Source: an uncultured Anaerolineae bacterium (lineage in GTDB: Bacteria; Chloroflexota; Anaerolineae; Aggregatilineales; UBA3940). Taken from it: DNA of 64,000 nt. This document shows positions 12,206 to 53,848 of the stretch, piece by piece. Every line of letters begins with the position of its first letter. Position 1 is the first letter of the stretch. Location of the stretch: assembly GCA_964439625.1 (NCBI GenBank), contig CAYTPI010000019.1:73-64072 (forward strand). The letters run 5' to 3'. The notes under the pieces are model-generated. The model saw only the letters and a program-made list of their open reading frames with translations. It made no database searches and was not told the origin of the DNA. The translations under genes were made by a program, and so were the position numbers.

Positions 12206-13765
12206 GTGCTGTTCCCGCCTTACACGCTTTTGATTGGGTCTATTATTTTGATGGGGGCCTTTATTATTCGGCTAGTGAACAATATGGCTCTGCCTTTGTT
12301 CGTCGATGAGACCTACCATATTATTCGCGGGCAGTTATTTCTAGACGGCGTCTACTTTGCCGGAATCGAAAAAAATAAGTGGTTGTTCGGCCCCTTCATC
12401 GCGATTTTCAACCCAACTGGGCCAGAAGCCCCTTTCATCGGTCGCTACGTGAATATCTTGCTGGGCATATTGACTTTAGCGCTGACCGTCAAGATTGGCG
12501 CTCGCCTTGCCGATTGGCGTACAGGTCTCTTGGCGGGTGCATTCTACATGGTTGTGCCGTTAGCGGCCTACCATGAGCGAGAAGCCTTGGTTGACCCTCT
12601 AATGGGCGTTTTTGCGGCTGCAAGTGTCTGGGTAACGTTGTCCATGGTGCGTCGCCCCAACCTTCGCTTGGCTGTGTTACTAAGCATGACGTTAGCTCTA
12701 AGCCGTCTGACAAAAGCTTCGATGGTCGGGTTTTTCTTGCTGCCTTTCGCGGGGGTTGTGCTCTTTACGCTGCTTGACGATGCAGCAGTGACTTGGCGCA
12801 ATGCAATTTCCATACTACGAACTCGCCTCAAGCAGCCGCTGCACCGCCAAAAGTTTATGCGGACACTTGCTTACACAGCCATCGGTGTGGCGCTTAGTTT
12901 GGTTATTGTCGGGGTGGCTTACCAAATCGCCGATCAGGTCGGGGGCCAAGTATCACGCAGTCGTTACTCATTGGAGCTTAGGAATTTTGCCTTTCATCTT
13001 ATTTGGGGGCGGGCCGCACCAGGGTACTTGACGAAAGAATTCGTTAAATTTGCACAAGTCCATCTCCTGTTTCTAACGCCCAGCGTACTCATCCTGATGG
13101 CAGCAGCCGTTCTTGCCAGCTTCACGCAGCAAGACCAACGCGTGATCGCTTTCTTGCTGATTCCCGCAGTCTTGTTTGCCTTCATCCCCGTTTTTGCGGA
13201 AAGACCTGTGGCAGATGGCTCTGAACTGCCAGCGCGATACTTCTACCAAGACGCGCCTTGGAGTGCTCTACTTGCGGCACTTGGGGTCGCCCCGCTTGTC
13301 GGGTGGTTGAAGCGGCGCCTGCAATCTTCGGTCATCCATGAGGCCGTGCTTAACCGATGGATGATTGCGCTCAGTCTGCTGATCCCTTTTGCCTTTACAA
13401 TGACGCTAATAGTCGCCCCCCGTCAATCTCCGCTTGTCTACCCAGCACAGGACATATGGCGTGGGTATTTGCATGAAGACATGATACATACGTTACAGGC
13501 TGCCCATGCCGCTGAGCCAGAGAAGCCAATGCAAATTTATGTGAATGGGCCTGAGCCATTATGGCTAGAAACGCACTTTGGCCCCCGTGTTGCCAACATT
13601 GAAACGGGCGTCAATCTTCAGGAACTATCAGGGGCGGCATTGGACAAATGGCTCGCTGATGATTACTTGCTTGTTCTCCTCCTGCATGAGGGATGCCCGA
13701 ACTTCAACGAGGCCATCTCACCGGCGTATCGACAGTCGTTTTACTGTTTTGAGTTAGAAGCATAG
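12206..13765 (+). CDS. GT-C fold (ArnT/PMT-like) membrane glycosyltransferase-like protein, short form; paralog of 33954..45454
   Basis: It is polytopic. It shares 'LPLFVDETYHIIRG', 'EKNKWLFG', 'NPTGPEAPFIGRYVNILLG' and 'YHEREALVDPLMG' with the five tandem paralogs. Confidence 0.7.
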   Translation: MLFPPYTLLIGSIILMGAFIIRLVNNMALPLFVDETYHIIRGQLFLDGVYFAGIEKNKWLFGPFIAIFNPTGPEAPFIGRYVNILLGILTLALTVKIGARLADWRTGLLAGAFYMVVPLAAYHEREALVDPLMGVFAAASVWVTLSMVRRPNLRLAVLLSMTLALSRLTKASMVGFFLLPFAGVVLFTLLDDAAVTWRNAISILRTRLKQPLHRQKFMRTLAYTAIGVALSLVIVGVAYQIADQVGGQVSRSRYSLELRNFAFHLIWGRAAPGYLTKEFVKFAQVHLLFLTPSVLILMAAAVLASFTQQDQRVIAFLLIPAVLFAFIPVFAERPVADGSELPARYFYQDAPWSALLAALGVAPLVGWLKRRLQSSVIHEAVLNRWMIALSLLIPFAFTMTLIVAPRQSPLVYPAQDIWRGYLHEDMIHTLQAAHAAEPEKPMQIYVNGPEPLWLETHFGPRVANIETGVNLQELSGAALDKWLADDYLLVLLLHEGCPNFNEAISPAYRQSFYCFELEA

Positions 13766-15232: not shown

Positions 15233-15272
15233 TTGGCGCAATATAAATACGAAGTGGCGTAGTATGCTAGTG
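15233..15272 (+). promoter_or_regulatory. 40-nt operator/promoter module, copy 1 (upstream of the LtrA-like gene)
   Basis: TTGGCGCAATAT-N10-TGGCGTAGTAT-GCTAGTG. It matches the reverse-strand module at 19907..19946 at 28 of 30 non-spacer positions. Confidence 0.6.
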
Positions 15273-15389
15273 TACAATGCTCTGAATTGTCATATGGTCT
15301 CATCGTGTTGTGACTTATAATTGCACAGAAGATACTCATCCTAAAACTAGAATCTTTTACAAAGGTCAATCCACTGGAGTAATAAGCCA

Positions 15390-28215: not shown

Positions 28216-28518
28216 ATGAATATCGCATTATTTTGGTCGGCTGTCTTCATCATCCTTGGCGCGGTACTGGCAACCTTGGGCGTCATCGTCTTGGTTCATA
28301 GGCGGGTGGCGATCAACGTGATGGGCCTTCAACTGACTTACGGTGCAGGCCGTGCGGTGGTATTTGGCTTCTCGTTGATCAGCGGGAGTATGTTCATGGT
28401 CTTGTCTGGTATACGCGCTCAGTATGAGTTGTTTTGCGTCGGTGCCACGTTGCTGCTGTTACTGAACCCCTCGTTTGGGCTGCTGGCATTCATCAAGCAG
28501 TACCGCCGTAAACCTTGA
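28216..28518 (+). CDS. hypothetical small membrane protein (3 TM)
   Basis: The ORF has three hydrophobic segments. No family was recognised. Confidence 0.35.
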   Translation: MNIALFWSAVFIILGAVLATLGVIVLVHRRVAINVMGLQLTYGAGRAVVFGFSLISGSMFMVLSGIRAQYELFCVGATLLLLLNPSFGLLAFIKQYRRKP

Positions 28519-32567: not shown

Positions 32568-33152
32568 ATGCAGGTACAACTGCCCGCAGATGAATTCCGC
32601 TATACGCTGATGTGCACAGCGCTGCATACACTTGGCGGGGTTGGGACTGCTTTTACGTGGACGCAAAGCGATGGGTCGCTGCTGTCGGTGCTGGTGATTG
32701 GGTTGGCTGCACTGACCTTGCTGCTGGCCCTCACGTGGATCGTCAGTGTGTGGTACATGCCGCTGGGCCTATGGCTGGTGTGGCCCCTCTTCACCGCTGT
32801 TGGATGGGCATTATCCGGGGTATTGGTCGCTGTTTATCTGTTTGTGTTTACAATTCCAATGGTTTGGTTTGCCCCTATCATTGGCCTGCTGTTGTTTACG
32901 GGCATCAGCATGACAATTGCGATCTTCCAGTGGCAGGCGATGATCTTCGTCAAGCTGGCGCCGTCGTTTTACTGGGTCTGGACGAACGTCTTGGGCTGGG
33001 GCTTTGGCTGGCTGCTGGGGTTTGGGTTGGGCTACCCGCTGTACCGCTTTATTGACCCTGCGGTGGGCTACCTCGCTGGGGCGGTTGTGATGGGCGGCGT
33101 TATCGGGTTGTTTCAGGGAGTTGGCTTACCGCAAGCCCTGCGCGAGGGCTAG
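32568..33152 (+). CDS. hypothetical membrane protein (about 6 TM, W/G-rich)
   Basis: GGAAGGTG RBS. It is hydrophobic throughout. No family was recognised. Confidence 0.45.
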   Translation: MQVQLPADEFRYTLMCTALHTLGGVGTAFTWTQSDGSLLSVLVIGLAALTLLLALTWIVSVWYMPLGLWLVWPLFTAVGWALSGVLVAVYLFVFTIPMVWFAPIIGLLLFTGISMTIAIFQWQAMIFVKLAPSFYWVWTNVLGWGFGWLLGFGLGYPLYRFIDPAVGYLAGAVVMGGVIGLFQGVGLPQALREG

Positions 33153-33266: not shown

Positions 33267-33953
33267 TTAAACGTCAACCCGACGCAGAACAGTGAAGGTC
33301 GTCTCTTTGATCAACTCGAAGCCCAGTTTCTCATAGGCGGCAATGGCTGGTGCATTGTCTGCGAAGGCATGCAGGAAGGGGGTCTTGCCTGCTTGCATAA
33401 TCACCTGCATCACCTTGCTGCTGAGGATGCTGGCAAGCCCCTGCCGCCGATGGTCAGGGTGGGTACACACCGCACTGATCTCCACGTAATCGTCGAGCGC
33501 TAAGCGCTGACCCGCCATAGCAATCAACTGACCCGCCACCCGTACCCCGAAGTAGCGCCCCAGCAAGTAGGTGCGGGCTTCAAACGGGCCTGGCTCCGTC
33601 AGCGCCACCAAGGCTTGCATAGCGGGGGCATCGGCTGCACCTAACTCAATGATTGCCGTCTGGCTGGTGTCAACGGGCATTGGGTCGGTACACAGCATCC
33701 GCACGCCTCTGCCTTCACGCTCAAACACCCAATAGGGCGACTCAAGTCCGTCTAAGCTCCCAACAGCTGCTGTGTCACCGGGTTGGTGCAGCATGGCTAG
33801 GTCTCGCAGCGTGTCCTCAGCCACATATTTGACGGCTGTAATCGGTGAGATATCGGCTGGGTAGCGGACCGCGTTGCCTTCGCGCACAGCCAAATGCTGA
33901 TGCGGGCCAGTCAGGGCGTACCATGCCGGGTTCTCTAGCTGTTCGCGTGACAT
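33267..33953 (-). CDS. GNAT family N-acetyltransferase (FR47-like)
   Basis: It has the acetyl-CoA site 'VCTHPDHRRQGLASILSSKV' and 'NAPAIAAYEKLGF'. Its ATG directly abuts the stop of the upstream GT-C gene (TGAATG). Confidence 0.75.
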   Translation of the reverse strand: MSREQLENPAWYALTGPHQHLAVREGNAVRYPADISPITAVKYVAEDTLRDLAMLHQPGDTAAVGSLDGLESPYWVFEREGRGVRMLCTDPMPVDTSQTAIIELGAADAPAMQALVALTEPGPFEARTYLLGRYFGVRVAGQLIAMAGQRLALDDYVEISAVCTHPDHRRQGLASILSSKVMQVIMQAGKTPFLHAFADNAPAIAAYEKLGFELIKETTFTVLRRVDV

Positions 33954-35495
33954 TCATTCCACCTCGATGACTCGGTATATGCTGACCGGGTCTTGCTCCT
34001 GCCAGCTTTCGGTTGTGTACACATGCTCAAGAGTGGTGCCATTTGGTCCCTCGATTGCCACACCGGCACCCAGCCACTCGACGATGTAGATCGGTGTTTG
34101 TGCCGCCCACCATGCCTCGAAGCGCTCGCGCTGTTCGGCGCTGTTTGGGTTGTTCAAGTGCATATCACTGAGGCGTGGGCCGAGGTGCGTCCGGGTATGT
34201 AAGATGGTGGTGTTGTGCCCGACACCGGTTACCCGTCCAGTCTGCACTTCGTCCATGAAATAACGCACCACGTCTTGGTAGCGATAGCCACTGGTTGTGT
34301 CGGTGATATACACACGGTAGTCATAGGTGGTCAGGTTGGCTTCTGGTGGGTTTTGGTATAAGTGTCTATTGAATGCGATCATCGGCGTTACCGTGATGAG
34401 CAAGGCGGCTGGTAGTGCCCAACGTGTATCAAAACGCTCTGCGCTCGCTGTCAAACCGATAGCTGCCAGCACCACAAACGCGGCGGTATTTGGCAGCAGG
34501 TAGCGTGTGGCGATATCGTCGGTGGCGGTTGGGCGGCTGGCGAGCACGGGCACGAGCGCAAAGGCCACGGCTGGTACCAGCAGAAACAGTACAGCTTGCC
34601 AGCGATGCTGATCAGTAGTAGCGAAGATGACAGCGCCGAAGGCAAACAGCAGCATAGCGGGGCCAGCATACTTCCAGCCGATTTCGAGCAGTACGCCGAT
34701 ATCCCGTGGGGTGCGTTGAAGAAAAGCCTGCAACCCAAAGCGACCCATACCCGTGTTAGCATAGCGGAAGGTGTGCGTGTCGTGTGGGGTGGTGCCTGCC
34801 ACTGCTGCTATCTGGTAGATTGCTAACGTCAGGCCAACGGCTGTGATGATCGACACGGCTGCGATCAAAACGCCCTTAGCCAACCGCGGATTCCGCCAGG
34901 TGTTAGGTGCCTGCTTCAGTATTCCAAAAGCGATTAAGGCGACCAAGGGCATGACCAAATACGGTGCGGCGGCGGGCTTGGTCAGCAGGGCGGCTGCGAA
35001 CGAGAGCGTCAACGGGAGGGCCAACCACCAGCGCGGGCGGTGTGCTAGATGCAGTGAAGCCACCAGCGTCAGCGTGCCGAAGGCTACCATCATGGGGTCA
35101 ACTAGGGCCTGCCGCTCATGGAACACCGCCATCGGCAGTAGGGCGTAGAGCACACCCGCGACAGCTCCAGTTAGGCGGTTGTCGAGCAGGCGGCCCAGCG
35201 TGATGCAGCCCGCCATACTGACTGCGGCAAACAGTACGGTCAGGTAGCGTGCGAGCCAAGGTCCCTCAGGCCCAGTCGGGTTGAACTGCGCCAGCGTAAA
35301 AACATAGAGCCACTTGTTCTGTTCCAAGCCGTCGAAGGTGTCGCCCGCCATCACCACGTTGTGCGCCCGAGCGAGGTGTAGTACCTCATCGGTGAACATC
35401 GGCAGGGCCATCACGCGGTGCAGCCGCAGCAGCGCGCCCACACATATAATGATGACGGCACACCAGGTCAGTGTGTTGGGTCGCAGGCGGGGCAT
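33954..35495 (-). CDS. GT-C fold (ArnT/PMT-like) membrane glycosyltransferase-like protein, short form
   Basis: It has 'LPMFTDEVLHLARA', 'EQNKWLY', 'NPTGPEGPWLARYLTVLFA' and 'FHERQALVDPMM'. Its start overlaps the upstream stop (TAATG). Confidence 0.7.
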   Translation of the reverse strand: MPRLRPNTLTWCAVIIICVGALLRLHRVMALPMFTDEVLHLARAHNVVMAGDTFDGLEQNKWLYVFTLAQFNPTGPEGPWLARYLTVLFAAVSMAGCITLGRLLDNRLTGAVAGVLYALLPMAVFHERQALVDPMMVAFGTLTLVASLHLAHRPRWWLALPLTLSFAAALLTKPAAAPYLVMPLVALIAFGILKQAPNTWRNPRLAKGVLIAAVSIITAVGLTLAIYQIAAVAGTTPHDTHTFRYANTGMGRFGLQAFLQRTPRDIGVLLEIGWKYAGPAMLLFAFGAVIFATTDQHRWQAVLFLLVPAVAFALVPVLASRPTATDDIATRYLLPNTAAFVVLAAIGLTASAERFDTRWALPAALLITVTPMIAFNRHLYQNPPEANLTTYDYRVYITDTTSGYRYQDVVRYFMDEVQTGRVTGVGHNTTILHTRTHLGPRLSDMHLNNPNSAEQRERFEAWWAAQTPIYIVEWLGAGVAIEGPNGTTLEHVYTTESWQEQDPVSIYRVIEVE

Positions 35496-37942
35496 TAGTT
35501 AACGTTGATTATGCCCAGCACCACGTGGTCGCCTGTGTCGCTGCCATCAGTGACGCGCAAGCGTAGGCCATTGGCTGGGTTGTAAATGCCTGTGATCAGG
35601 CGGTAGCTGCCGGGGGCCAAGTCAGGCGGAAGCTGAAGCGCGTAGCGATCTGTGACCGTTTCGCCCGCCTCCCAATCAGTCATCGGTAACAACCCGCCGC
35701 CCGGAATACCATCTCGCTGGGTGACGAGGCTGCCATCAGCGTCGAGTAGGTGCGTAAACGTGAAGAAGGAGTCTTCGACGGGTGCATCTGTGCGCCAATC
35801 AACCGCCACGCGGATCACATCACCGGGTGCCGCTTGCTGATCGAGTAAAGCGACAGCTTCGGCATGCAATACGCCTTCAAACACCGCATCAAGTGTGGTT
35901 TTCTCAGGTGTTGCAGGCCCAGCGGCGTATATTTGGTAGTTCAACAAGCCTGACCATTGTTCCGTGCCAATCGGGTAGGCGTTCTCTAATAGCGTGGTTG
36001 CCAACACCCGCGTCGGGTCAGTTGAAGGTGGGTCGTAAATCACTAGCCCGAATGTCTCGCGGTCGTCAAGGGCCATGCTGCCGAGGGCCTCTTGGACGAC
36101 ATCCGCCGTCAGGGGCCAGCGTGCAAGCGGGAAGGCTGCTGTGGATGTGCCAGTGCCGGCTGCCAGCATCTCGGTATGGTCAAAGGGATAGGCAGTGACC
36201 TGATCGACGCCGCTGCTGTTGACGATACCCGCCAGTTGATCGTAGTCCCCCGACATAAATTCGGGTTCGTCGCCGTATAAATCATAGATGTCCGCCCCTA
36301 ACTCAGGGCCACCCCCGACAATGCGATAGGCCGTAATGTGGTCGGTGGGGGTATCCCATTGGAAGGCTGGCTCAAGAATGGTGTCGTTTGGCCCCCACAT
36401 GCGTTCATCCGTGCTCGCCATCGGGCGGATCATATCACGATAGTCGCCGGTATCAACCAAGTAGACGAGGTCTTCTGAGGCCAACCATAAGGCTAACTGG
36501 TAGCGCTGCTCTGGGCTGTCCGGGATGAGGGACTTGACCTCACCAATGCGTGGGCCAAGCAGGGTGCCCGTCCAGAAGATGGTTGCGCGATCCCCTACGG
36601 CGTGGATGCGGAAGGTATCGGTACGTTCAGCCTCACTGAGCATGAAGTCAACGGCTGGGCGGTAAAAGTACCCACTGGTCGAATGCCGTAGGTAAACGCG
36701 GTCATCATAAACGTTGAAGTTGACGTTGTACGGGTCGGTTATCAGGCGTAGGTTAAAGCTAATATTCGGCACCAGGATGCCAATCAGCGCGATGCTTGCA
36801 AACACCGACCCAACCCCTGAACGCCAGTGGTTGAGCGTCTCCGTCGTCAGGGCGATGCCGATGGCGGCTAAGACCACCAGTGCGCTGGCATCGGGCAGAA
36901 GGTAGCGCGTTGCGATCTCGCCGGAGCCAGTCGGACGGTTGGCGACCAGCGGCACCACCAAGAACACAATTCCCGGCACCGCCAAATAGGCGACCTCCCG
37001 CCAGCCCTTGCGGGTGATTAGGGCGTAACCGAGCGCTAAGACAATCGCGGTGACCGTCACCCAGCCCATATACTTGCCGAGTGCATCTGCAATTGTCACC
37101 AGATCGTCCCTGAGTGGGGGTTGTTCCTTGTCTAAGCGTGCTTCGTATTCTGCCGTCTGAAAGACGGTATTGCCCAGCGTGATCGTATGCGTTTCGCGTG
37201 GGGCCACGCCGCTGGCCTCTGCTAATTGATACACCCCTGCCGTCACCCCTAAAGTAATTGTGGCAGCAACGGCCCACATCGCCATCGGTTTAATTAAACG
37301 GTTGAGGTCGCCGAAGACACGCAGCAGTGGTGTGTCATCCCGTGGGATCAAATTTAACAACACGAACGCCACCGGCGGCAGTACCAAAAACGGCAGCATC
37401 GCTGGTTTGACCAAGCGCGCAGCCGTGAGTGAGAAGGCCAGTAGGGCCGTGTGCAGGATCCATTTCGGCTGACCCTTAGCGTTTGTCTGGGCGATCCCTA
37501 CCGTTACCACCATGCTGAAACTGGTCAGGGCTGTCATCATGGGGTCAACAAGGGCTTGGCGCTCATGGAAAGTCGCCAGTGGAATCACAGCGTAGATCAA
37601 GCCAGCGAGCACGCCGACCCAGGCCGACTTCAACTGACGGCCTAAGGCTATGACGCTGGCAATGCTGATGCAGGCCCACAGCGTGTTGAAGTAGCGTCCC
37701 AGCCAGCCAGACTCGGGGCCAGCCGGGTTGAAGTGGGAGAAAACATAGCCCCAGAACCACTTATTCTGATCCAGCCCATCGAACGTTAGCCCATTGATAA
37801 TGTTGTGGACGCGCCCAATATGGCGCACTTCATCACTAAACATGGGGATCGCCATGACGTTGGTCAGGCGGATGAGAATGGCAAGTAGAATTAGCGGGAT
37901 GGCGGCCCAGTAAATCGAGACGCTGCCGAGGCGTGTCTTCAA
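35495..37942 (-). CDS. GT-C fold membrane glycosyltransferase-like protein, long form with conserved C-terminal module
   Basis: It has 'IPMFSDEVRHIGRV', 'NPAGPESGWLGRYFNTLWA' and 'FHERQALVDPMM'. The C-terminus is 'FTFTHLLDADGSLVTQRDGIPGGGLLPMTDWEAGETVTDRYALQLPPDLAPGSYRLITGIYNP'. TTG start. Confidence 0.7.
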   Translation of the reverse strand: MKTRLGSVSIYWAAIPLILLAILIRLTNVMAIPMFSDEVRHIGRVHNIINGLTFDGLDQNKWFWGYVFSHFNPAGPESGWLGRYFNTLWACISIASVIALGRQLKSAWVGVLAGLIYAVIPLATFHERQALVDPMMTALTSFSMVVTVGIAQTNAKGQPKWILHTALLAFSLTAARLVKPAMLPFLVLPPVAFVLLNLIPRDDTPLLRVFGDLNRLIKPMAMWAVAATITLGVTAGVYQLAEASGVAPRETHTITLGNTVFQTAEYEARLDKEQPPLRDDLVTIADALGKYMGWVTVTAIVLALGYALITRKGWREVAYLAVPGIVFLVVPLVANRPTGSGEIATRYLLPDASALVVLAAIGIALTTETLNHWRSGVGSVFASIALIGILVPNISFNLRLITDPYNVNFNVYDDRVYLRHSTSGYFYRPAVDFMLSEAERTDTFRIHAVGDRATIFWTGTLLGPRIGEVKSLIPDSPEQRYQLALWLASEDLVYLVDTGDYRDMIRPMASTDERMWGPNDTILEPAFQWDTPTDHITAYRIVGGGPELGADIYDLYGDEPEFMSGDYDQLAGIVNSSGVDQVTAYPFDHTEMLAAGTGTSTAAFPLARWPLTADVVQEALGSMALDDRETFGLVIYDPPSTDPTRVLATTLLENAYPIGTEQWSGLLNYQIYAAGPATPEKTTLDAVFEGVLHAEAVALLDQQAAPGDVIRVAVDWRTDAPVEDSFFTFTHLLDADGSLVTQRDGIPGGGLLPMTDWEAGETVTDRYALQLPPDLAPGSYRLITGIYNPANGLRLRVTDGSDTGDHVVLGIINVN

Positions 37943-38054
37943 CGGAAACTCCTACATCAAACGAACGCGCAGATTATGCCTATAACAGTCCCGCACTATA
38001 GTCAGACATGCCCGTTGCTGCAACAATTCGCAGTGTTTCAGCGCAACGTCTGCC

Positions 38055-40508
38055 TTACTCTGACAGCACAAACCGACCAATTACCGCATGGTCACCTTCG
38101 CCAGCCGCTGATGTTGTTTGCAGTCGGAGGCTGCTGGCTGGGTCATAGATGCCGCTGATCACGGTGTAAGTGCCCGCGGTAAGTGTAGGCGGCAAAGGAA
38201 TCGCGTAGCGATCTGTGACGGGTTGATCAACGAACCATTGGGTCATCGGTAGCAAGCCGCCACCCGGGATGCCGTCACGTTGGAGCACCAGTTCACCGTT
38301 TTCGTCAAGAACGTGGGTGAAGGTGAAATACTCATCTTCGATTGGCGCGTTGGTCTGCCAAGTGACTTCGATCTGGAGCATCTCTTGGAAAACACGGCGT
38401 ACAAGCGCTGTCTCTAATGTGATTGCGTCCTCGAATATCACGTCTATCGGCTGCGTGTCGAGCGCGTAGGCCTCCAGGGTGTACAAGCGATAATTAAACG
38501 GTCCGTTCCAGTATTCGCGAGGCAGCGTGTAGGCCTCTTCAAACATGGTTGACGCGATCACCTGCTGCGGATCGACCGTTGGTGGTTCAAATAGAACGAT
38601 GCCCAGCGTCTCACCCGGCTCCAGCGGGATTTGAGCGACGGCCTGCTGTACATCTTCTGGGTTAAGCGGGTATACCTGTGTTTGCAGCCGCACGACCGGT
38701 TTACTCGTCTCTTGGGCGACGAAGGTCGTATGTTCCGTGGGGAAGACGGCGATGATATCCGCCGGGCTACCGGTGATCACAGGCCCGATGTTCTGCAGTT
38801 CTATCGGATAGAGTTCTGGGTCGTCTCCCAGTTGATCGTAAATGTAACTGGCCATTGGGTCAGTGGCACCTTCGACGATGTAGGCGTTTTGACGACTGTC
38901 TGGCGTGCGCCATGTATAGGCGCGCCGCAGCAGGAGGCCCTCTGGGCCAACAGGCTGCCCAAGATACTCTGTATCGCGGATGAAGTCATCTTTCCCAGTG
39001 TTCTCCAACACAATGATCGTGTCGCCTGCAATCAACCATTCGGCGATCAGTTCGCGCTGTTCATCAAAGTCTTCTTGAACTAAAAACTGCATCTCACCGA
39101 CTCGCGGCCCAAGTGTGGTCTGGGCGTAACGCAGCAGCTCTACATCGGAGAGAACATGCAGCCGCTCTGAGTCAGAGCGTTCGTATGTCCGCAGCAAAAA
39201 CTGAGCGGCACGCTCGAAGTAGTAGCCGCTGTTGCTGCTGTCGAAGTACACGCGCTGATCGTAAGCCGTCCAGTTGGCTTGGCGCGGATTGGTAATCATC
39301 ACGTAGTTAAACTGCAAATTCTGGTAGAGAATGCCTGCGACGAGCAGCAGGGCAACGGCTGGGGCCCCATAGGGAATCTGTGCTGCCTGCTGTACCACCG
39401 CGCCGATGCCAATTGCTGCAAGCACCGCCAAGGCACTGACGTTCAACAAGAGGTAACGGGTGGCGATCTCACCGGAGCCTGTCAACCTGTCGGCAAGGAG
39501 CGGCACCACCATAAAGAGGATCGCTGGGCAGGCCAGAAACACAACGGCGCGCCACTTGTAACGCAGTGCGCCTGCAAAGACGATTGCCGCCCCGATGCCA
39601 CCAACCACCACCCAGCCCATATACTTGATACTGGCATCCGTCAAGACGGTAATATCATCCAACAGGGTGCCTTGTTCAACGTCTGGCGCACCGCTGATGA
39701 TGGTGTTGCTGAAGGTGGCTTGGAACTTGTCCGTTGGAGTGACGTCGAACTCGGTTTCGGCGAACCAGTAGACGGCATACGTTGCCAGCAGTGTAGTCGC
39801 CACGGCTGCCACCCAGATCGTTAAGGGGGTGTAGGCTTGGTTCCAACGTTGGGCCAGCCAGCGCAGCGGTGATTGATCAGTTGGTAGAACCCCTAGCAGC
39901 AAAAAGGCCACTGGCGGCAGCACCAAAAACGGCAGCATCGCCGGTTTGACTAAGCGAGCTGCCAGCAATGATCCGGTCAGGATGAGGGTCAAGAGCGTGA
40001 TCGGTGCGTCGCGTCGCCAAATCGAGCGGGCCAGGGCCACAGAGGCCACCATACTCAGCGTGGTGAAGGCCGTCATCATAGGGTCAACAAGGGCTTGACG
40101 CTCATGGAAGGTCGCTATGGGCACGACGACATAAATTAGCCCAGCCAGCAGCCCGATCCAGCGAGAGCCGAGAATGCGACCGAGATAAATCGTCCCGGCA
40201 ATGCTGATCGTGGCCCATAGTATATTGAAGTAGCGCGCCAGCCATCCGGCTTCCGGGCCAGTCGGGTTGAGGCCTGCAAAGATGAAGCCCCACAGCCACT
40301 TGTTCTGAGGTAAGCCTTCGAACAGATCGCCCGTCAGTATCTCTTGTGCGCGTACGATGTGACGCACTTCATCAATGAACATCGGAATTTCGAGCACGTT
40401 GACCAGACGCAGCCAAACGCCCGCGAGCAGCAGCACGGCTGCCGTCAAATACCAGTAGCGTTGGGGATGCTCTTGAGCTTCAATTTCAGTAATTTTAATG
40501 GCGCTCAT
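38055..40508 (-). CDS. GT-C fold membrane glycosyltransferase-like protein, long form
   Basis: It carries the same motif set ('IPMFIDEVRHIVRA', 'NPTGPEAGWLARYFNILWA', 'FHERQALVDPMM', and the C-terminal 'FTFTHVLDENGELVLQRDGIPGGGLLPMTQW...'). Confidence 0.7.
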   Translation of the reverse strand: MSAIKITEIEAQEHPQRYWYLTAAVLLLAGVWLRLVNVLEIPMFIDEVRHIVRAQEILTGDLFEGLPQNKWLWGFIFAGLNPTGPEAGWLARYFNILWATISIAGTIYLGRILGSRWIGLLAGLIYVVVPIATFHERQALVDPMMTAFTTLSMVASVALARSIWRRDAPITLLTLILTGSLLAARLVKPAMLPFLVLPPVAFLLLGVLPTDQSPLRWLAQRWNQAYTPLTIWVAAVATTLLATYAVYWFAETEFDVTPTDKFQATFSNTIISGAPDVEQGTLLDDITVLTDASIKYMGWVVVGGIGAAIVFAGALRYKWRAVVFLACPAILFMVVPLLADRLTGSGEIATRYLLLNVSALAVLAAIGIGAVVQQAAQIPYGAPAVALLLVAGILYQNLQFNYVMITNPRQANWTAYDQRVYFDSSNSGYYFERAAQFLLRTYERSDSERLHVLSDVELLRYAQTTLGPRVGEMQFLVQEDFDEQRELIAEWLIAGDTIIVLENTGKDDFIRDTEYLGQPVGPEGLLLRRAYTWRTPDSRQNAYIVEGATDPMASYIYDQLGDDPELYPIELQNIGPVITGSPADIIAVFPTEHTTFVAQETSKPVVRLQTQVYPLNPEDVQQAVAQIPLEPGETLGIVLFEPPTVDPQQVIASTMFEEAYTLPREYWNGPFNYRLYTLEAYALDTQPIDVIFEDAITLETALVRRVFQEMLQIEVTWQTNAPIEDEYFTFTHVLDENGELVLQRDGIPGGGLLPMTQWFVDQPVTDRYAIPLPPTLTAGTYTVISGIYDPASSLRLQTTSAAGEGDHAVIGRFVLSE

Positions 40509-40597
40509 TGTTTATCTGCTGATCTCCAGCGTGGTGGTATCGATAAAACTGACCCTCTTTGCATCGCAGGGGCGCACCTGTGCGCCGAGCTGCATCG

Positions 40598-42997
40598 TCA
40601 TGGCCTGTGAGCAAAAGTGGCAATGGGCACGAAATCTGGGTTGGGGCTGCCGTCAGTAACGCGCAGTCGTAGTTGGCTGGTCGGTTCGTACAGCCCGATT
40701 AAGATGTCATATTCGCCTGCTGGTAGATCGGCTGGGAGCTGTACCACGTACCTATCGGTGATCGTCTCGCCCGGTTCCCACTCAGTGAGGGGGAACAAGC
40801 CGCCACCGGGAATGCCATCGCGCTGGGCGACGAGGTTGCCGTCGGCGTCAAGGATGTGGGTGAAGACCACAAAAGAGTCTTGAACCGGTTCGGCTGTTTG
40901 CCATCTCGCTTCGACCTCGACCATGCCACCGCTATTGCTAACCGCAGCAGTTTTCAAGGTGATGACGCCTTCAAACACCGCATTGACTGGCTCCGCCGCA
41001 TTGACTTCTCCATCGATGTAATGCTGTAACCGCAGCAGACCTGTCCACTGTTCGTTACCGACGAGATAATCTTGCGCAGCGAGTGCCATCGGGATGACGC
41101 GCTCAGGGTCACTAACGGGTGGGTCATAAACGATCACTGCGTAGGGGGCGTTAGGATCAAAGTCCAGTGACTCAACGGCCTCTGTGACGATCTCTGCCGT
41201 CAACGGCCAGGCGCTGACGGGCAGCGCTTCGACGCGGACGTCCGTCAGCGCGTTGAGAATAGGGGCGTGATCATAGGGGTAGGCGATCACCTGCTCGATA
41301 TTCTGCTCGGCAAGGGATGCTGCCAGCGCTTCATAGTCAGCTTGCATGAATTCCGGCTCGTCCCCTAAGAGATCGTAGACTTCAGCCGCCAAGCCTTCAC
41401 GTGCACCTATCACGCGATGCAGGCGCTCTTGACCGTATAATGAGTCCCACTCGGTAAGGTACTCTAGCTCGGTGCCATTGGGGCCTGCTTCGAATGGGTT
41501 TTCTTCTGGAGACTCAATCAGGTAAACGTACTCACCCTGTTCCAACCACAGTGCAATCTGGTACTGCTGCTCGGGGCTGTCATAGAGAATGGCTTTAGAG
41601 TCACCGACGCGTGGCCCCATATAACTCTGCACCCAGAGCATGGTCTTAGGCGGGCCGATTGTATGCTGCCGTTGACCGCCGTTGTTAATCCATTCCGCAT
41701 GCAGGCGGTTAACCACTGGGATGTGGTAATAGCCGCTGGTCGTATCTTCAAAGTATACGCGCTGGTCGTAACGGTTCCAGTTGACCTGCCAAGGGTTTTG
41801 CAGCATGCGGACGTTGAACCACATCGACTGCCCAACCACGACGATCAAAGCAAACAAAGAGATAGCTGGCGCGAGAGTCGGGCTGTACTGACTGACGCGG
41901 GTGACGACCAAGCTTAGGCCCAGCGCGACCAACACACTGAGCGAGACGGTGTTGATCAGTGTGTAGCGGGTGGCGATCTCGCCGGTAGCGGTCGGTGGGG
42001 TGGCGACCACTGGCACCGCCATAAAGAGGATCGCCGGTGCCAGAATAAAGAGCACTTCACGCCAACGGTCTTTGAAGATGAAAGCCAGCACCAACCCGCT
42101 GACCATCAACAAGGTGCCACCGATGCCAACATAACGCACAATGGCGTCCGCTAGAAAGGTAATGTCTTGCGTCAGACGTTCTTGCAGGGCAACCGGGTCA
42201 CCAAGGTAAGCCAAGAGGGTGTTGTCTGCCGAGACCTCCGTCTGCTCACGTGGGTTGACGCCGGTGCTGTCTGCCACAATGAAGATGGCTCGCTCTACGG
42301 CTAGCACAAACACAACGGCTACTAGTGCCGCCACCGTTGGCTTGATCAGCCTGCGCCAATTGGCAAACAGGGGTTTGAGGCTGAAGCGATCAGCCGGTAG
42401 GGCGAATAACAGGAGGCCCCAGATCGGCAAGGCATAGAACGGTAGAATCGATGGTTTGGTGGCACGGGCTAGGGCCATCACAATGCCAAGGCCAGCGGCA
42501 TAGTACCAGACGCTGCGCTTACGGTCGGGGCGCGCTAATGAGATGGCGAATAGCACAGCTACCGCTGCCAGCGCTGCCACCTGCGGGTCCGTTAGGGCTT
42601 GACGCTCGTGGAAGGTCGCGAGGGGCACAACAGCGTAGACTAGGCCAGCCACCAGCCCCGTGGTACGGCGGTCGAGCTTGCGCCCAACTGCCACCGCCGC
42701 CGACATGCTGATGGCGGCCCACAAAATGTTAACGTAGCGTGCGATCCAAGGGCCTTCGGGGCCAGTGGGGTTGAACCACGAGACGACATAGCCATAGAAC
42801 CACTTATTTTGATCGAACCCGGCAAAGGGCACACCGTTCAAAATGCGGTGTGCGCGGATCAGGTGCCAAGCCTCATCGCTGAAGTAAGGGATCAGCATCA
42901 CATCAATGATGCGAATGCTGACGCCAAGCAGCAAGATGCCAATGGCAAGCCAAAGTAAGGTAGTAGATCGAAGATTACGCATAGTGATGCATGTCAA
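40598..42997 (-). CDS. GT-C fold membrane glycosyltransferase-like protein, long form
   Basis: It has 'IPYFSDEAWHLIRA', 'NPTGPEGPWIARYVNILWA', 'FHERQALTDPQV' and the C-terminal 'VVFTHILDADGNLVAQRDGIPGGGLFPLTEW...'. Confidence 0.7.
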   Translation of the reverse strand: MTCITMRNLRSTTLLWLAIGILLLGVSIRIIDVMLIPYFSDEAWHLIRAHRILNGVPFAGFDQNKWFYGYVVSWFNPTGPEGPWIARYVNILWAAISMSAAVAVGRKLDRRTTGLVAGLVYAVVPLATFHERQALTDPQVAALAAVAVLFAISLARPDRKRSVWYYAAGLGIVMALARATKPSILPFYALPIWGLLLFALPADRFSLKPLFANWRRLIKPTVAALVAVVFVLAVERAIFIVADSTGVNPREQTEVSADNTLLAYLGDPVALQERLTQDITFLADAIVRYVGIGGTLLMVSGLVLAFIFKDRWREVLFILAPAILFMAVPVVATPPTATGEIATRYTLINTVSLSVLVALGLSLVVTRVSQYSPTLAPAISLFALIVVVGQSMWFNVRMLQNPWQVNWNRYDQRVYFEDTTSGYYHIPVVNRLHAEWINNGGQRQHTIGPPKTMLWVQSYMGPRVGDSKAILYDSPEQQYQIALWLEQGEYVYLIESPEENPFEAGPNGTELEYLTEWDSLYGQERLHRVIGAREGLAAEVYDLLGDEPEFMQADYEALAASLAEQNIEQVIAYPYDHAPILNALTDVRVEALPVSAWPLTAEIVTEAVESLDFDPNAPYAVIVYDPPVSDPERVIPMALAAQDYLVGNEQWTGLLRLQHYIDGEVNAAEPVNAVFEGVITLKTAAVSNSGGMVEVEARWQTAEPVQDSFVVFTHILDADGNLVAQRDGIPGGGLFPLTEWEPGETITDRYVVQLPADLPAGEYDILIGLYEPTSQLRLRVTDGSPNPDFVPIATFAHRP

Positions 42998-43036
42998 CTT
43001 TAGGTCATTACCCGCTGGTTTGTACCGCTGATGGCC

Positions 43037-45454
43037 TTATTTCACAACGATCTGCCCGATAGCGATCGCATTGTTCTCGCTGCTGCCATCGGTAACGCGC
43101 AAACGGACGTTACTCACCGGGTTATACAGTCCCACGCGCACCGTGTACGTACCCGGTTGCAGATCGGGTGCGGTTTGCAGTGCGAACCGGTCTATAATGG
43201 GCTGCCCGCGCTCCCAGCTTGACGTAGGGAACAGCCCCCGACCGGGCTGCCCGTCGTACTGAGCGACCAGATTGCCGTTTTCATCAAGGAGGTGCGTGAA
43301 GGTGGTGAAGTCATCTCGGATGCTCTCCTCCGTTACCCAAATATAGGCAAAGCGGATGGGATCACCCGCGCGAATTTCCTGATCGAGAATGGCGAAGCGA
43401 TCCAGCGCGATGACTTCTTCGTAGCCCGCTTCGACGGGAGTCAGGCTGGGGTCGGTTGGCCCAGTCACAAAGCCGATGTAATGCAGCACCCCGCTGTAGA
43501 TATCGTCGTAGGCATATAGGTTCGAGGTGTACAGTGCTAGTTGCAGTGTGCGTTCGGCATCTGTCGCTGCCTCATCGACGAGTATCACGCCAACGCGCTC
43601 GCCACCTGTGCCCATCTCGAATAGGGCCGCTTCGATCATATCTTGGTCCAGGGGCCAACGCTGTAAAATGAGGGGGCGAACCTCTGTCTCTGTGAGGCCA
43701 TCGGCGAATTCAGCATGATTCATGGGGAAGGTATACAGCACTTGGCTTGAGACCTGTGGTAGTAAGGCTTCATAATCTGCCGCCATTGATTCGGGTGAGG
43801 CGGCCTGATGCGTGTACACGGCATCGCCCTGAGCACCATTGAGCTGATCGACGCGCCACAGCCACTGGCGACCAGAGCGCGACTCGTTGCTAAATACCGT
43901 CAGCGTCAGGCCTTCAGTGCGGTAGGCCAGCGGCAGCCGGTACCCCTGCTCATCTTCGATCAGAAAAGCCTTTTCACTGCGGGCTACCCAAAAGGGCAGC
44001 GCGCTTGGGTCTTCCGGGTTGAGCACGATCACCGGGCCGGTGCGCGGGCCGAGATAGGCTTTGTATTCCATTTCAGAGAAGGTGACCAAGGTTGTGTAGG
44101 GCTGTGCGCCAGTACGGTCGGTGTTTGCGGCCCAGTCCGCGGCGATTGTCGATGCTGCGTCGCGTCCGAACGCACTCTTGCCGTACCATGGTATCTGTGA
44201 CCGGTACGGCAGTTCGGCTAGATTGAGTGAGTCCCGTAGCCAGATTGGGTCGAACATCCAAGCCATGCCGATTGCCATCGTCGGGAAGACGACCAGACTT
44301 GTAATCATGAACTGCACGGTGCGCTGCTTGTTCAAGAAGCGCTCATATGTGAGCAGAATGGCTATGGCGACGAATACCGCCAGCGCTGGCCCGTTAATCA
44401 CCAAGTAGCGGGGGAATAAGCGCTCAACGCCAAAAGCAGGCCGCACCGCCATCATTGGAATGATCAAGTAGACTAAAGCTGGAACCGCGAGCAGCAGCAG
44501 CGCCGTCCGGTACTTGTGCGACGCAACCAACCAGCCAATGCCGACGACCACAAAGACGACGACACCCAAGCTCCAGAACGTCAGGTGGATGAAGAAGATT
44601 TCGAGCAGATCAGTGCCAAAGCGCGAGACTAGAGTTGGCAGCGTCCAACTCTGCGTGAGAACCGTATTACCCAATGAGACGGTATGCGAGCCGCGTGGGG
44701 AAACCCCTTGCGCTGCTGCCAGCCTATAAATCCATTCCATCACTGCCACAACGATCACAACACTGACGGCACCGTAGGCTGCTACTCGCCAGAAATGCCC
44801 ATCGATGCGTTCGCGAAGCCGCGCAAAGGTGGGAATGCGTCCGTCCGGCATCAGGCGCAGCAGGATCAGGGCGACGAATGGCAGGGCGAAAAAACCGACC
44901 ATCGCTGGTTTCGTCAAGCGTGAGAGCAACAGGAACGCGGTCATAATGACCAGGAACAGCAGTTCACGCCGTCGAGAATAGTTGAAGCGTGCCAGCCGGA
45001 TCATAAAGAGGAAGGCGACCATAGCGGTAGCCGTCATTTGGGCATCATGGATGCCGCGCCGTTCGTGGTAGATGCCCATCGTGGCGACGGCATACAGTAG
45101 CCCCGCCAGCACCCCGGCGCGCCACGAGTGCATCATGCGACCGAGCGAGATCACTGTTGCTGTACTGACCAGCGCCCACAGCACATTGACGTAACGCCCA
45201 ACCCAACTGGCTTCCGGGCCGTTGGCCCCTAACTGCGCGACAAGATAGCCCCAGAACCACTTATTCTGATCCAATCCGTCGAAGGTGCTGCCATTAATGA
45301 TGTTGTAGATGCGCAGCAAATGCCGGATTTCATCGGCGCTAATGGGGTAGTTGTTCAGGTTGACGGTACGCAGCGTAAACGCCACAGCCATCACAAGTAG
45401 GGCCAGCAACCATAGGCTGGCGTAGCGCTGTTGATGTGGGGATGGAACGGTCAT
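43037..45454 (-). CDS. GT-C fold membrane glycosyltransferase-like protein, long form (most divergent copy)
   Basis: It has 'YPISADEIRHLLRI', 'ANGPEASWVGRYVNVLWA', 'YHERRGIHDAQM' and the C-terminal 'TTFTHLLDENGNLVAQYDGQPGRGLFPTSSW...'. Confidence 0.7.
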   Translation of the reverse strand: MTVPSPHQQRYASLWLLALLVMAVAFTLRTVNLNNYPISADEIRHLLRIYNIINGSTFDGLDQNKWFWGYLVAQLGANGPEASWVGRYVNVLWALVSTATVISLGRMMHSWRAGVLAGLLYAVATMGIYHERRGIHDAQMTATAMVAFLFMIRLARFNYSRRRELLFLVIMTAFLLLSRLTKPAMVGFFALPFVALILLRLMPDGRIPTFARLRERIDGHFWRVAAYGAVSVVIVVAVMEWIYRLAAAQGVSPRGSHTVSLGNTVLTQSWTLPTLVSRFGTDLLEIFFIHLTFWSLGVVVFVVVGIGWLVASHKYRTALLLLAVPALVYLIIPMMAVRPAFGVERLFPRYLVINGPALAVFVAIAILLTYERFLNKQRTVQFMITSLVVFPTMAIGMAWMFDPIWLRDSLNLAELPYRSQIPWYGKSAFGRDAASTIAADWAANTDRTGAQPYTTLVTFSEMEYKAYLGPRTGPVIVLNPEDPSALPFWVARSEKAFLIEDEQGYRLPLAYRTEGLTLTVFSNESRSGRQWLWRVDQLNGAQGDAVYTHQAASPESMAADYEALLPQVSSQVLYTFPMNHAEFADGLTETEVRPLILQRWPLDQDMIEAALFEMGTGGERVGVILVDEAATDAERTLQLALYTSNLYAYDDIYSGVLHYIGFVTGPTDPSLTPVEAGYEEVIALDRFAILDQEIRAGDPIRFAYIWVTEESIRDDFTTFTHLLDENGNLVAQYDGQPGRGLFPTSSWERGQPIIDRFALQTAPDLQPGTYTVRVGLYNPVSNVRLRVTDGSSENNAIAIGQIVVK

Positions 45455-45644
45455 TGAGTCGTAGATCGGTTGGAATTTTCAACGAAGCCGTATTGTAGTA
45501 GCCATTATCGGCGATTGCGAAAATAAAGCCTCAATCAGTCTAAATAAGGAAATGCTGTCAGCCTCAGGGAGCAGCAGGGGTCGAGTCCGCATTTAGTGTT
45601 CGACTACAAAGATGTGCTAAGAGCAAAACGTTTGTGACTAAACA

Positions 45645-52081: not shown

Positions 52082-53848
52082 TTATCGGTTAAGATCCAGC
52101 AGGGGTGGGTATACTTGCTGCACTTGCTCATTGACGTAACCCGGCCTAATTCGCTCATAGGGGGCATAGCTGGATTCTGCCTCTGGCCCAATCACTGACA
52201 GATCGACATAGTCGTTGAACACACCAAACTCAGCCAAAGACCGCGCCGATATATCCTCGATGATTACCGCTTGCCCGTCAGTATTTTTGGTGATGAAGAT
52301 CACCTGATCCCAATTATAGTGCTGGTCGGTAAATAAAAAGGAGGGCGGCCCCGGGTGTGTCTGGGTCACGGTGACGCCGTCTTCCGTAATCTGCCAGTCG
52401 CTGCCGGCCATATTATCATTGGAGATCAGCGCCCTTGCTTTTTCTTCATACAGTACTTGTACGGCGTATTGCAGCCCGACCCCAAAGATGAACGGTGAGT
52501 CATCAGCACCTTGTGGCTGAATATGGATAAACAGTGTGCCCTCTTCAACATCAGGTGTAATGTGTGTAAGCGTTCGGAAATATTTAGCTTGATCCGACCA
52601 AACTGAGTCAAGGGCATATAATTCCCCCTGAAGGTCACTGACTTGAACAGCACCAATTGTCCCTACTGTGATTAAAACCATAGCAGCGAGTGCTTGCCTA
52701 AGCCAGTTACGTGGTAACAGTTCTGAAATCAACCACACGATAGCAGTCACTATTACCGCGACACCAATCGGTGTCGTTGAGTGCACTCTGATGGTTGTGT
52801 CGGCTACAATTGTTAGGAGAAAGGCAAACAATCCAAGGAACCAGACTAATATCCCCAACCCAAGCCAGAGAAGCGGTTTCTTTAAATTTTGAAGCCAGTA
52901 ACGATCTTTCTCAGCTTGGCCCAGGGCCCAATCTGGCGATCTCAACACGAACCAACTGGTAAGTAATAACGATGTATTCACCAATATAATTGGCAGCCGA
53001 TACTCAGTCAGTTTGCTAGCTTGTAACAAGAAAAGCGGCCGCAAGGTAAACATTGTTTGTAGAGATAAGCGCGACACAATCCGCTCTAATGACACAGGCT
53101 CCCTGAAACCACTGAAATATGTTTCGCTCCCTAAGCCAAGTATGGGGATTGCATACCATGCTGCGGAGATCGAAATAAACACGCCCCAAAGACATAATTT
53201 GAAAAAGGTTGAGCGATCATATTGGCGGCCTAGAATGATCCCTAGGGTAGGTATGCCTGCTAGGAGTGGTAAGAGTGCTTCACGCATTCCGCTTGCCAGT
53301 AAACAAAACAAGCCACTAATAAAGAGCATGCCGTAGCTTAAATCATCAACGCTGCGGAAAAAGAGATATATGGCGATTAAAGCGAAAGTAAGACTGAGTA
53401 GATGGTCACTAATAGAGAAGATATTGAGCAGAAAAAACCAATCAGGTACGAAATATAATAAGTAAATGAAGCCAGCCATGTAGCTGAACTGAACGTGCGT
53501 CAAGAGAAGCTGACGCATGTTTAAATAGACAAGGCAAGCATTCACACACCTGCCTAGCAATACGAAGATGTGTCCTGCAATTGGTGCTGTATCAAACACG
53601 AAGGCGAAAAGTGCGACGGGAACCAGTGTCGTTGGTCTACTTGAATAGTAACCAAGCCGTCCGTTAATAGCTGAGTAGTAGTGCCCCCACGAATCGCCAC
53701 CGTCACGGTTGCCGTAGTCAATGACAGTGAACAACGCCGCTGTCACTAGCAGATAAGCGGCAAACACCATGAGATCACGGCGAAGCCTTGGGTGGCTCTG
53801 AAAGTAGCTTGTAACTGATTTCTGCATAGCGGTTAACCTAGCATCCAC
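52082..53848 (-). CDS. polytopic membrane protein, family B paralog 1 (putative GT-C/GtrII-like)
   Basis: It has about 12 TM segments. It shares 'DYGNRDGGDSWGHYYSAINGRLGYYSSRPT' and the C-terminal 'YAPYERIRPGYVNEQVQQVYPPL' with 55526..57232. It is visibly more AT-rich than its paralog. Confidence 0.55.
   Translation of the reverse strand: MDARLTAMQKSVTSYFQSHPRLRRDLMVFAAYLLVTAALFTVIDYGNRDGGDSWGHYYSAINGRLGYYSSRPTTLVPVALFAFVFDTAPIAGHIFVLLGRCVNACLVYLNMRQLLLTHVQFSYMAGFIYLLYFVPDWFFLLNIFSISDHLLSLTFALIAIYLFFRSVDDLSYGMLFISGLFCLLASGMREALLPLLAGIPTLGIILGRQYDRSTFFKLCLWGVFISISAAWYAIPILGLGSETYFSGFREPVSLERIVSRLSLQTMFTLRPLFLLQASKLTEYRLPIILVNTSLLLTSWFVLRSPDWALGQAEKDRYWLQNLKKPLLWLGLGILVWFLGLFAFLLTIVADTTIRVHSTTPIGVAVIVTAIVWLISELLPRNWLRQALAAMVLITVGTIGAVQVSDLQGELYALDSVWSDQAKYFRTLTHITPDVEEGTLFIHIQPQGADDSPFIFGVGLQYAVQVLYEEKARALISNDNMAGSDWQITEDGVTVTQTHPGPPSFLFTDQHYNWDQVIFITKNTDGQAVIIEDISARSLAEFGVFNDYVDLSVIGPEAESSYAPYERIRPGYVNEQVQQVYPPLLDLNR

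Follow-up and report, generated by a model that had tools for sequence, protein, structure and literature searches.

We analyzed a 64-kb stretch of DNA from contig CAYTPI010000019.1 (here, the window) and focused on an array of membrane protein genes at positions 33267 to 45454. The minus strand of this region carries five co-oriented, head-to-tail paralogs followed by a GNAT acetyltransferase gene as the last gene of the run, and a sixth copy lies elsewhere in the window. Judging from predicted structures, the six proteins are GT-C-fold membrane glycosyltransferases of the ArnT/PMT type. By sequence, their family is an unnamed, divergent lineage that borders on the ArnT/PMT group (Pfam PMT_2, COG1807), without a characterized member. 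The duplications are old, and copies 2 to 5 have counterparts at the same positions in related metagenomic contigs. The genes and the one putative regulatory site of the array, together with the sixth copy, are as follows.

45492..45521, minus strand: promoter-like hexamer pair inside the 190-nt gap upstream of copy 1, from a consensus scan (weak evidence)
43037..45454, minus strand: copy 1, long form, open reading frame (ORF) of 805 aa with all the catalytic-loop motifs; PMT_2 E value, 3.9e-4; Wzt_C E value, 0.022; family hidden Markov model (HMM) score, 648 bits
40598..42997, minus strand: copy 2, long form, ORF of 799 aa from a TTG start
38055..40508, minus strand: copy 3, long form, ORF of 817 aa; Pfam PMT E value, 1.5e-4
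35495..37942, minus strand: copy 4, long form, ORF of 815 aa; overlaps copy 5 at its stop codon
33954..35495, minus strand: copy 5, short form, 513 aa; membrane core and first alpha/beta domain only
33267..33953, minus strand: GNAT acetyltransferase, 228 aa; Pfam FR47, Acetyltransf_1, and GNAT_acetyltran
12206..13765, plus strand: copy 6, short form, unlinked to the array, 519 aa; alone among the copies in exceeding the PMT_2 gathering score

This layout, in which coordinates and lengths match the ORF list, is the one described in an initial annotation made from the sequence. The junctions reported there could also be read directly: the four long copies are spaced by 39, 89, and 112 nt, a single base is common to the end of copy 4 and the start of copy 5 (TAATG), and the GNAT gene follows copy 5 without a gap (TGAATG). 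In the public annotation, copy 2 (P0043) starts at an ATG at 42982, 15 nt downstream, which gives a protein of 794 aa and a gap of 54 nt. A scan of the gaps within the array found no terminator-like sites. The promoter-like site and the terminator-free gaps are compatible with a single transcript across the array, without proving one. The GC content of the array (56 to 60%) is only slightly higher than that of its flanks (47 to 57%) and gives no clear sign of a foreign origin.

Fold, family, and conserved residues

We used Foldseek to compare AlphaFold models of copy 5 (pLDDT, 83.2; pTM, 0.85) and full-length copy 4 (pLDDT, 87.9; pTM, 0.79) with structures in the PDB. All 26 matches to the copy 5 model at an E value of ≤1e-3 were GT-C enzymes. 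At the same threshold, the copy 4 model also matched GT-C enzymes, except for matches to its soluble C-terminal region (the Wzt carbohydrate-binding domain and GH3 beta-glucosidases). The best E values were to the oligosaccharyltransferases AglB, STT3, and PglB (1e-8 to 1e-6), while ArnT was matched with E values of 3e-7 to 1.5e-6 and target TM-scores of 0.50 to 0.55, and ALG12 and ALG9 reached TM-scores of up to 0.65. AftA, Pmt4, and AftD were also recovered; Emb structures were weaker (1e-2 to 1e-1), and PIGU was among the weaker matches.

Sequence profiles placed the family more narrowly. A profile built from 114 family members had ArnT (5ezm) as its sole significant match among PDB sequences (E value, 6.3e-5); a profile of the six paralogs returned nothing meaningful from the same sequences. 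Against Pfam PMT_2 (PF13231; cut-off, 26.1 bits), the window copies scored 21.1 to 26.5 bits, and copy 6 alone passed (26.5). Against PMT (PF02366; cut-off, 22.7 bits), copy 4 scored 24.3, copy 5 23.3, and copy 3 21.8, with no match for the other copies. When 64 family members were scanned singly, 53 matched PMT_2 at an E value of ≤1e-3 (best E value, 4.8e-15) and 31 matched PMT. Copy 5 had weak matches to the Pfam family GtrII and to TIGR03663 (Agl23; E value, 1e-3, far under the cut-off), and the NCBIfam scan of the window copies gave nothing useful. Neither the window copies nor the 64 scanned members had an Emb-family or STT3 Pfam match, and a MIR domain was found by Pfam in none of the six copies.

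Because the profile matches ArnT and the family members match PMT_2 and PMT, we place the branch at the ArnT/PMT_2 edge. The initial annotation had proposed an ArnT/PMT-like GT-C fold and had suggested HMM and Foldseek searches, which could have pointed away from GT-C; the fold matches came out GT-C, and the ArnT profile match and the PMT_2 and PMT matches among family members agree with the proposal. We rejected membership in the oligosaccharyltransferases despite their top Foldseek ranks: the WWDxG-type motif (regular expression W[WYF]D[YWFN]G) is present in none of the six copies, and there is no sequence-level signal for that group.

The family is large. When the core profile was used for an exhaustive HMM search, 188 representatives of 50%-identity clusters were recovered at an E value of ≤1e-30 and 1,113 at ≤1e-10; a word-index homolog search, which returned about 16 members, badly underrepresents it. 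Among the best 144 members, 91 were long forms (760 to 840 aa) and 33 were short forms (450 to 560 aa). Family members in genome collections came from metagenome-assembled genomes of Chloroflexi or Anaerolineae. The asparaginyl-tRNA synthetase encoded in the window was at most 77% identical to any other protein in the collection searched, and its closest named relatives were from Chloroflexota, Anaerolineae, Aggregatilineales/Aggregatilinea, and Phototrophicaceae. These relationships place the window in an uncultured Chloroflexota of the Anaerolineae type.

In a six-way protein alignment, the first ∼510 to 550 residues of the copies align, with 26 to 35% identity to copy 1 and 43 invariant columns. 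In copy 1 numbering, these columns include D41, E42, H45, and R48; N64, K65, and W66; G79, P80, and E81; R87 and Y88; H130, E131, R132, and D137; and K182. The initial annotation had listed a set of motifs shared at equivalent positions, and a regular-expression check found every one of them in all six copies, save that copy 1 reads GANGPE in place of NP(T/A)GPE. We divided copy 4 into four parts, using AlphaFold secondary structure, conservation across the 114 sequences, topology, and the ArnT alignment for the membrane core.

36737..37942, minus strand: copy 4 residues 1 to 402, 11-helix membrane core
36308..36736, minus strand: copy 4 residues 403 to 545, first extracytoplasmic alpha/beta domain, after helix 11; present in all six copies
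35981..36307, minus strand: copy 4 residues 546 to 654, second alpha/beta domain; long copies only, without a Pfam match
35498..35980, minus strand: copy 4 residues 655 to 815, C-terminal beta-sandwich of the long copies, resembling the Wzt carbohydrate-binding domain

In the predicted outside loops of the core of copy 4, loop 1 holds D37-E38, H41, R44, K61-W62, and G75-P76-E77; loop 2 holds R128 and D133; loop 3 holds K179; and loop 5 holds R346-Y347. E38 and R346 are invariant in the 114-sequence alignment, D37 is conserved in 95% of the members, and equivalents of D37 and E38 are present in all six window copies. R25, P33, D37, R83, Y117, P121, R128, D133, K179, P189, and Y347 are each conserved in at least 90% of the sequences. 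In the profile alignment to ArnT 5ezm, D133 corresponds to D158, K179 to K203, and Y347 to the LPGY tyrosine (Y345 type). The chain indices of the first two in 5ezm, 161 and 206, are both offset by 3 from the published numbering, and the tyrosine lies at most 1 residue off its expected position. In ArnT, D158 is salt-bridged to K203, both residues contact the sugar, and the carrier phosphate is contacted by Y345; in oligosaccharyltransferases, an arginine in the outside loop equivalent to that of R346 binds phosphate; and the DE pair of Pmt1 is catalytic, its Glu being bridged to an Arg (E78-R138) (PMC7801869). By analogy, the E38-R128 pair could be comparable to this Glu-Arg bridge.

Both the AlphaFold models and hydropathy gave 11 membrane helices. 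The initial annotation had allowed 11 to 13; the lower figure stands, and a range up to 13 is not supported. Lysines and arginines averaged 9.3 in the predicted inside loops versus 3.7 in the short outside loops, with inside exceeding outside in 114 of 114 sequences, and the positive charges of the outside loops were mostly the conserved R128, K179, and R346. The N terminus is thus predicted to be inside and the DE loop extracytoplasmic. This charge distribution argues against a cytoplasmic DE loop and agrees with the initial annotation, which had put the DE pair in the first extracytoplasmic loop.

Related arrays and the age of the duplications

Two metagenomic contigs, L001 and L002, have the same arrangement as the window. 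In L001, the order is a partial copy, an 820-aa copy, an unrelated 427-aa protein, an 814-aa copy, a 511-aa copy, a GNAT gene, and pantothenate kinase. In L002, a PMT_2 protein and a sulfotransferase are followed by family genes of 868, 786, 813, and 542 aa, a GNAT gene, and a GH1 gene, and a further family member (801 aa) is placed separately on the opposite strand. Tandem family copies also occur in contigs L008 and L012, and single genes occur in L003, L004, L007, and L013. It is important to note that the genome scan used strict peptide patterns and returned three loci, so that these locus counts are not estimates of prevalence.

We built a neighbor-joining tree of the protein cores, and it grouped genes by array position rather than by organism. 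Copy 2 pairs with the 868-aa protein of L002 (55% core identity), copy 3 with the 820-aa protein of L001 (71%), copy 4 with the 814-aa protein of L001 (77%) and the 813-aa protein of L002 (54%), and copy 5 with the 511-aa protein of L001 (60%) and the 542-aa protein of L002 (51%). Copies 1 and 6 branch outside these groups. Copy 1 diverges most from the rest of the array (core identity of 24 to 32% to the other copies and to the orthologs of these), and within the related loci it has a single relative, the 801-aa gene of L002. Overall, positional orthologs were 51 to 77% identical, versus 25 to 46% for paralogs within the window.

Because the genes group by position and not by organism, these comparisons support duplications that predate the split of the three organisms, with each copy kept since. 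The initial annotation had anticipated old, maintained duplications and had called for a phylogeny of the copies against their orthologs; our tree covers the cores from the window, L001, and L002, and within that scope the duplications are indeed old. The retention of positional orthologs also supports, at the sequence level, the suggestion that the copies have nonredundant functions. At the DNA level, similarity among the copies is patchy, as previously noted, with 65 to 77% identity across stretches of ∼100 to 500 nt. For this reason, we rejected recent duplication or gene conversion.

The last long gene and the short gene overlap in all three arrays (TAATG in the window, TAATG in L001, and ATGA in L002), which suggests coupled translation of the two. 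By analogy with Pmt1-Pmt2 and EmbA-EmbB, the two proteins possibly work as a pair.

The related arrays also contain other genes. A 427-aa membrane protein (L001, 3776 to 5059), whose sole Pfam match is weak (DUF2079; E value, 0.007), lies between the orthologs of copies 3 and 4, where the window has the 112-nt gap. In L002, a 482-aa PMT_2-type membrane protein and a sulfotransferase (Sulfotransfer_1/3) precede the array (2106 to 4768), and a GH1 glycosidase follows the GNAT gene (14893 to 16275). The L002 genes hint that its product may be a sulfated glycan.

Function, alternatives, and neighboring genes

The outside region of the long copies bears on the choice of acceptor. The beta-sandwich of copy 4 matched the Wzt domain 6o14 in Foldseek (E value, 1.2e-4; TM-score, 0.54), and Pfam Wzt_C scores were below threshold (E value, 0.022 for copy 1 and 0.058 for copy 4). 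By blastp, the beta-sandwich was 30 to 40% identical to the C termini of PMT_2, PF11028 (TMEM260-like), PF09852, and PF09913 proteins (P0017 to P0042), and several proteins of those other GT-C families carry the module as a tandem duplicate. The few source-named proteins that carry it were all from Chloroflexota or Anaerolineae. Because it recurs at the C termini of at least four other GT-C Pfam families, the beta-sandwich is a mobile accessory module that has been shuffled among GT-C enzymes.

We think it probable, though well short of certain, that the six proteins are outward-facing GT-C enzymes that move a polyprenyl-phosphate-linked sugar to an envelope glycan, with labor divided among the paralogs. 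The active site would lie at the outer face of the membrane, where the loop-1 D-E pair, R128/D133, K179, and R346/Y347 would bind the phosphate and the sugar of the donor, and the sugar would be passed to an acceptor outside the cell. The Wzt-like beta-sandwich is the chief reason that we favor a glycan acceptor; from it we infer an envelope glycan chain rather than a lipid. Each paralog might add a different sugar or linkage or serve a different site, and the last long copy and the short copy would be made in fixed proportion, maybe as a pair.

Several observations weigh against this reading. Pfam scans of ORFs found neither a GtrA-type flippase nor a GT2 synthase of polyprenyl-phosphate sugars in the 64-kb window, and scans of neighboring genes found neither beside the relatives in L001 to L013. 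TM-scores to all known GT-C structures were just 0.4 to 0.65, and, taken singly, the window copies are at or below the Pfam gathering cut-offs. The top TM-score was to ALG12, a GT-C enzyme of another structural subclass, and the top E values were to oligosaccharyltransferases; fold matching is therefore not enough to determine the type of donor. Support for a Wzt-like domain comes from a single structural match together with Pfam scores below threshold, this domain is absent from copies 5 and 6, and the pairing of copies 4 and 5 has gene overlap as its sole basis.

A different acceptor is conceivable. We regard it as rather unlikely, although worth keeping in view, that the copies are protein O-glycosyltransferases like bacterial Pmt, fungal PMT1-7, and TMTC, which would modify Ser/Thr of secreted proteins, lipoproteins, or an S-layer, with different substrate sets for the different paralogs. 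PMT and PMT_2 are the only Pfam families matched, and copy 6 begins 32 nt downstream of a lipoprotein-like gene whose product has an Ala/Glu/Pro/Thr-rich N-terminal linker. Segments of this kind are O-mannosylated in Actinobacteria, and in fungi, too, PMTs come as families of paralogs, which heterodimerize. In addition, the E78-R138 salt bridge of Pmt1 (PMC7801869) could have an equivalent in the invariant E38 and R128. However, the long copies end in a carbohydrate-binding-like beta-sandwich and not in a MIR or TPR peptide-binding module, and Pmt4 and Pmt1/2 were weaker fold matches than ArnT or the oligosaccharyltransferases. The best Foldseek E values, to AglB, STT3, and PglB (1e-8 to 1e-7), would fit an oligosaccharyltransferase-like (STT3/PglB/AglB) role, in which pre-assembled oligosaccharides would be transferred or polymerized from polyprenyl-diphosphate and the C-terminal domain would recognize the lipid-linked glycan. 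R346 lies in outside loop 5, where oligosaccharyltransferases place their carrier-phosphate arginine (PMC7801869), and the corresponding domain of Wzt binds lipid-linked O-antigen at its end (PDB titles 8dky and 8dku). We nevertheless consider this role improbable, since no copy has a WWDxG-type motif or an STT3 Pfam match, the family profile finds ArnT and no oligosaccharyltransferase, the D133-K179 pair is the signature of ArnT/TMTC, and the oligosaccharyltransferase TM-scores were no better than those of ArnT.

Least credible of all is that some or all copies are noncatalytic GT-C scaffolds or lipid-handling subunits (compare PIGU and Agl23-type proteins) or a redundant duplication without division of labor. 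PIGU was among the weaker fold matches, copy 5 had the weak TIGR03663 match, and partner genes are not present, but all six copies keep all of the near-invariant acidic and basic residues of the family, and the higher identity of orthologs (51 to 77%) than of window paralogs (25 to 46%) argues for maintained, distinct functions. Returning to the transfer of a polyprenyl-phosphate-linked sugar to an envelope glycan, a bolder version of it, which we judge unlikely, makes the array a dedicated, outward-facing assembly line. Its product would be an envelope polymer specific to Chloroflexota, such as a filament sheath or a wall polysaccharide, with one linkage per paralog, long and short copies as obligate heterodimers, and the beta-sandwich as a common address tag for that polymer. 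If true, Chloroflexota would have an equivalent of the Emb/Aft machinery of mycobacteria, built from another GT-C lineage. Parts of the pathway-level reading in the initial annotation (a single assembly line, an embCAB-like role, and an acetylation step) are plausible.

The last gene of the run was correctly identified in the initial annotation as a GNAT gene (FR47 E value, 2e-20; Acetyltransf_1 E value, 4e-14). Its product has two domains and no membrane segment or signal peptide and is predicted to be soluble and cytoplasmic; the nearest solved structure is 3ec4, an uncharacterized structural-genomics protein (E value, 4e-34). Some GNAT gene occupies this position in all three arrays. The L001 gene is an ortholog (E value, 2e-90) separated from the array by a 642-nt gap. 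The GNAT gene of L002 (14150 to 14881) is not: its product is 24% identical to that of the window over 76 aa, compared with 51 to 54% for the flanking GT-C proteins. Either its sequence has changed very rapidly or L002 has acquired another GNAT gene at this site. No GNAT gene was found beside the single-copy relatives. With the GNAT predicted to be cytoplasmic and the GT-C active sites predicted to face outward, the enzyme could not acetylate a product made outside and could at most act on a precursor. The case for an acetylation step by the GNAT on the array product is thus weak; most likely, the enzyme is a passenger of the array or modifies a precursor in the cytoplasm.

No arn-like genes were found in the window, and no conserved GT2, GtrA, or GNAT neighbor was found beside the single-copy relatives, whose neighbors are unrelated (SAM synthetase, PEPCK, redoxin, GDSL lipase, and response regulator). 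The sole small multi-helix ORF in the window (28216 to 28515) has no Pfam match. The gene upstream of copy 6 (10824 to 12173, plus strand), which ends 32 nt before the start of copy 6, encodes a solute-binding protein (SBP_bac_8) with a lipoprotein-like N terminus and a long Ala/Glu/Pro/Thr-rich linker; it could be a candidate glycoprotein substrate of copy 6 or a mere neighbor. Just downstream of copy 6 (13860 to 15008, minus strand) is a gene for a baeRF family 7/3 release-factor-like protein, a bacterial protein of the archaeo-eukaryotic type (E value, 1e-45).

Other membrane-related genes lie elsewhere in the window. At 24465 to 26478 (minus strand), an ATPgrasp_ST gene ("sugar-transfer associated"; E value, 6e-50) is start/stop coupled to a 7TM_transglut membrane protein gene, forming an envelope-related pair. 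A 194-aa multi-helix membrane ORF without a Pfam match (32568 to 33152, plus strand) lies between the GNAT gene and a type III pantothenate kinase gene; in L001 the GNAT and pantothenate kinase genes are directly adjacent, without this ORF. On the other side of the array, a second tandem trio of polytopic membrane ORFs (568, 563, and 588 aa; 52082 to 57232, minus strand; overlaps of 4 and 11 nt) is located immediately upstream of genes for Rieske, cytochrome b, and cytochrome c proteins. Two of the three products, those of 568 and 588 aa, are paralogous (37.5% identity; E value, 1e-130), and the trio is without Pfam matches. We rejected the trio as members of the GT-C family, as hhalign detected no significant similarity.

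The envelope of Chloroflexota, and of filamentous Anaerolineae especially, is chemically poorly understood, and we know of no Chloroflexota GT-C enzyme with a known product. Our analysis defines an unnamed subfamily (at least 188 clusters at 50% identity) that is clearly marked by its motifs, has three domains in its outside region, and tends to occur in tandem arrays. Its members are concrete candidates for enzymes that make envelope glycans or glycoproteins, and its conserved residues provide a list for mutagenesis. As enzymology, it extends a well-known class and brings no new principle; we see it as an entry of moderate interest into the envelope glycobiology of Chloroflexota.

Comparison with known systems

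The pathway logic assumed here for the outward GT-C step is that of the three-component systems, which consist of a GT2 glycosyltransferase, a GtrA-type flippase, and a GT-C enzyme (PMC11127046). In contrast to those systems, the partner genes were found neither beside the array, nor in the 64-kb window, nor beside the relatives in the loci examined. The embC-embA-embB genes (GT53), to which the initial annotation had likened the array, are also GT-C paralogs arranged in tandem and in one orientation, and their products have C-terminal domains that bind carbohydrate outside the cytoplasm; the nonredundant copies build different parts of a cell-wall polysaccharide, and EmbA and EmbB form a heterodimer. 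Emb proteins nevertheless belong to a separate GT-C family with 15 helices and match the window copies weakly in structure (E value, 1e-2 to 1e-1) and not at all in Pfam; no acyl carrier protein partner is evident for the window array. The comparison with embCAB is thus an analogy of gene arrangement only.

The PMT/Pmt enzymes (GT39; PF02366 and the broader PF13231) are similar to the window copies in having a DE pair in loop 1, 11 helices, and paralog families, and theirs are the only Pfam families matched. The window copies, however, score at the gathering cut-off, have other C-terminal domains and no MIR domain, and match Pmt structures with E values of only 1e-5 to 1e-3. The C-terminal domain of Wzt (PF14524; 6o14 and 8dky) differs in being cytoplasmic and part of an ABC transporter, whereas the module in the window copies forms part of a glycosyltransferase and has a predicted location outside the cell, and the sequence scores of the window copies are far under the Pfam cut-off. 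In predicted structure, the last ∼160 residues of the long copies nonetheless form a matching beta-sandwich.

Compared with ArnT (GT83), the window family has 11 helices rather than 13, its own motif set (DE..H..R, QNKW, NPxGPE, HER..D, TKP, and RY), and, in the long copies, two more outside domains; identity in the structural alignment is ∼12%. Chloroflexota are generally described as being without lipopolysaccharide, and lipid A is therefore an unlikely acceptor in this host. The two share the GT-C fold, an acidic residue that opens outside loop 1, and an alpha/beta domain outside after the last helix, and the equivalents of D158, K203, and the phosphate-contacting tyrosine of ArnT are near-invariant in the window family.

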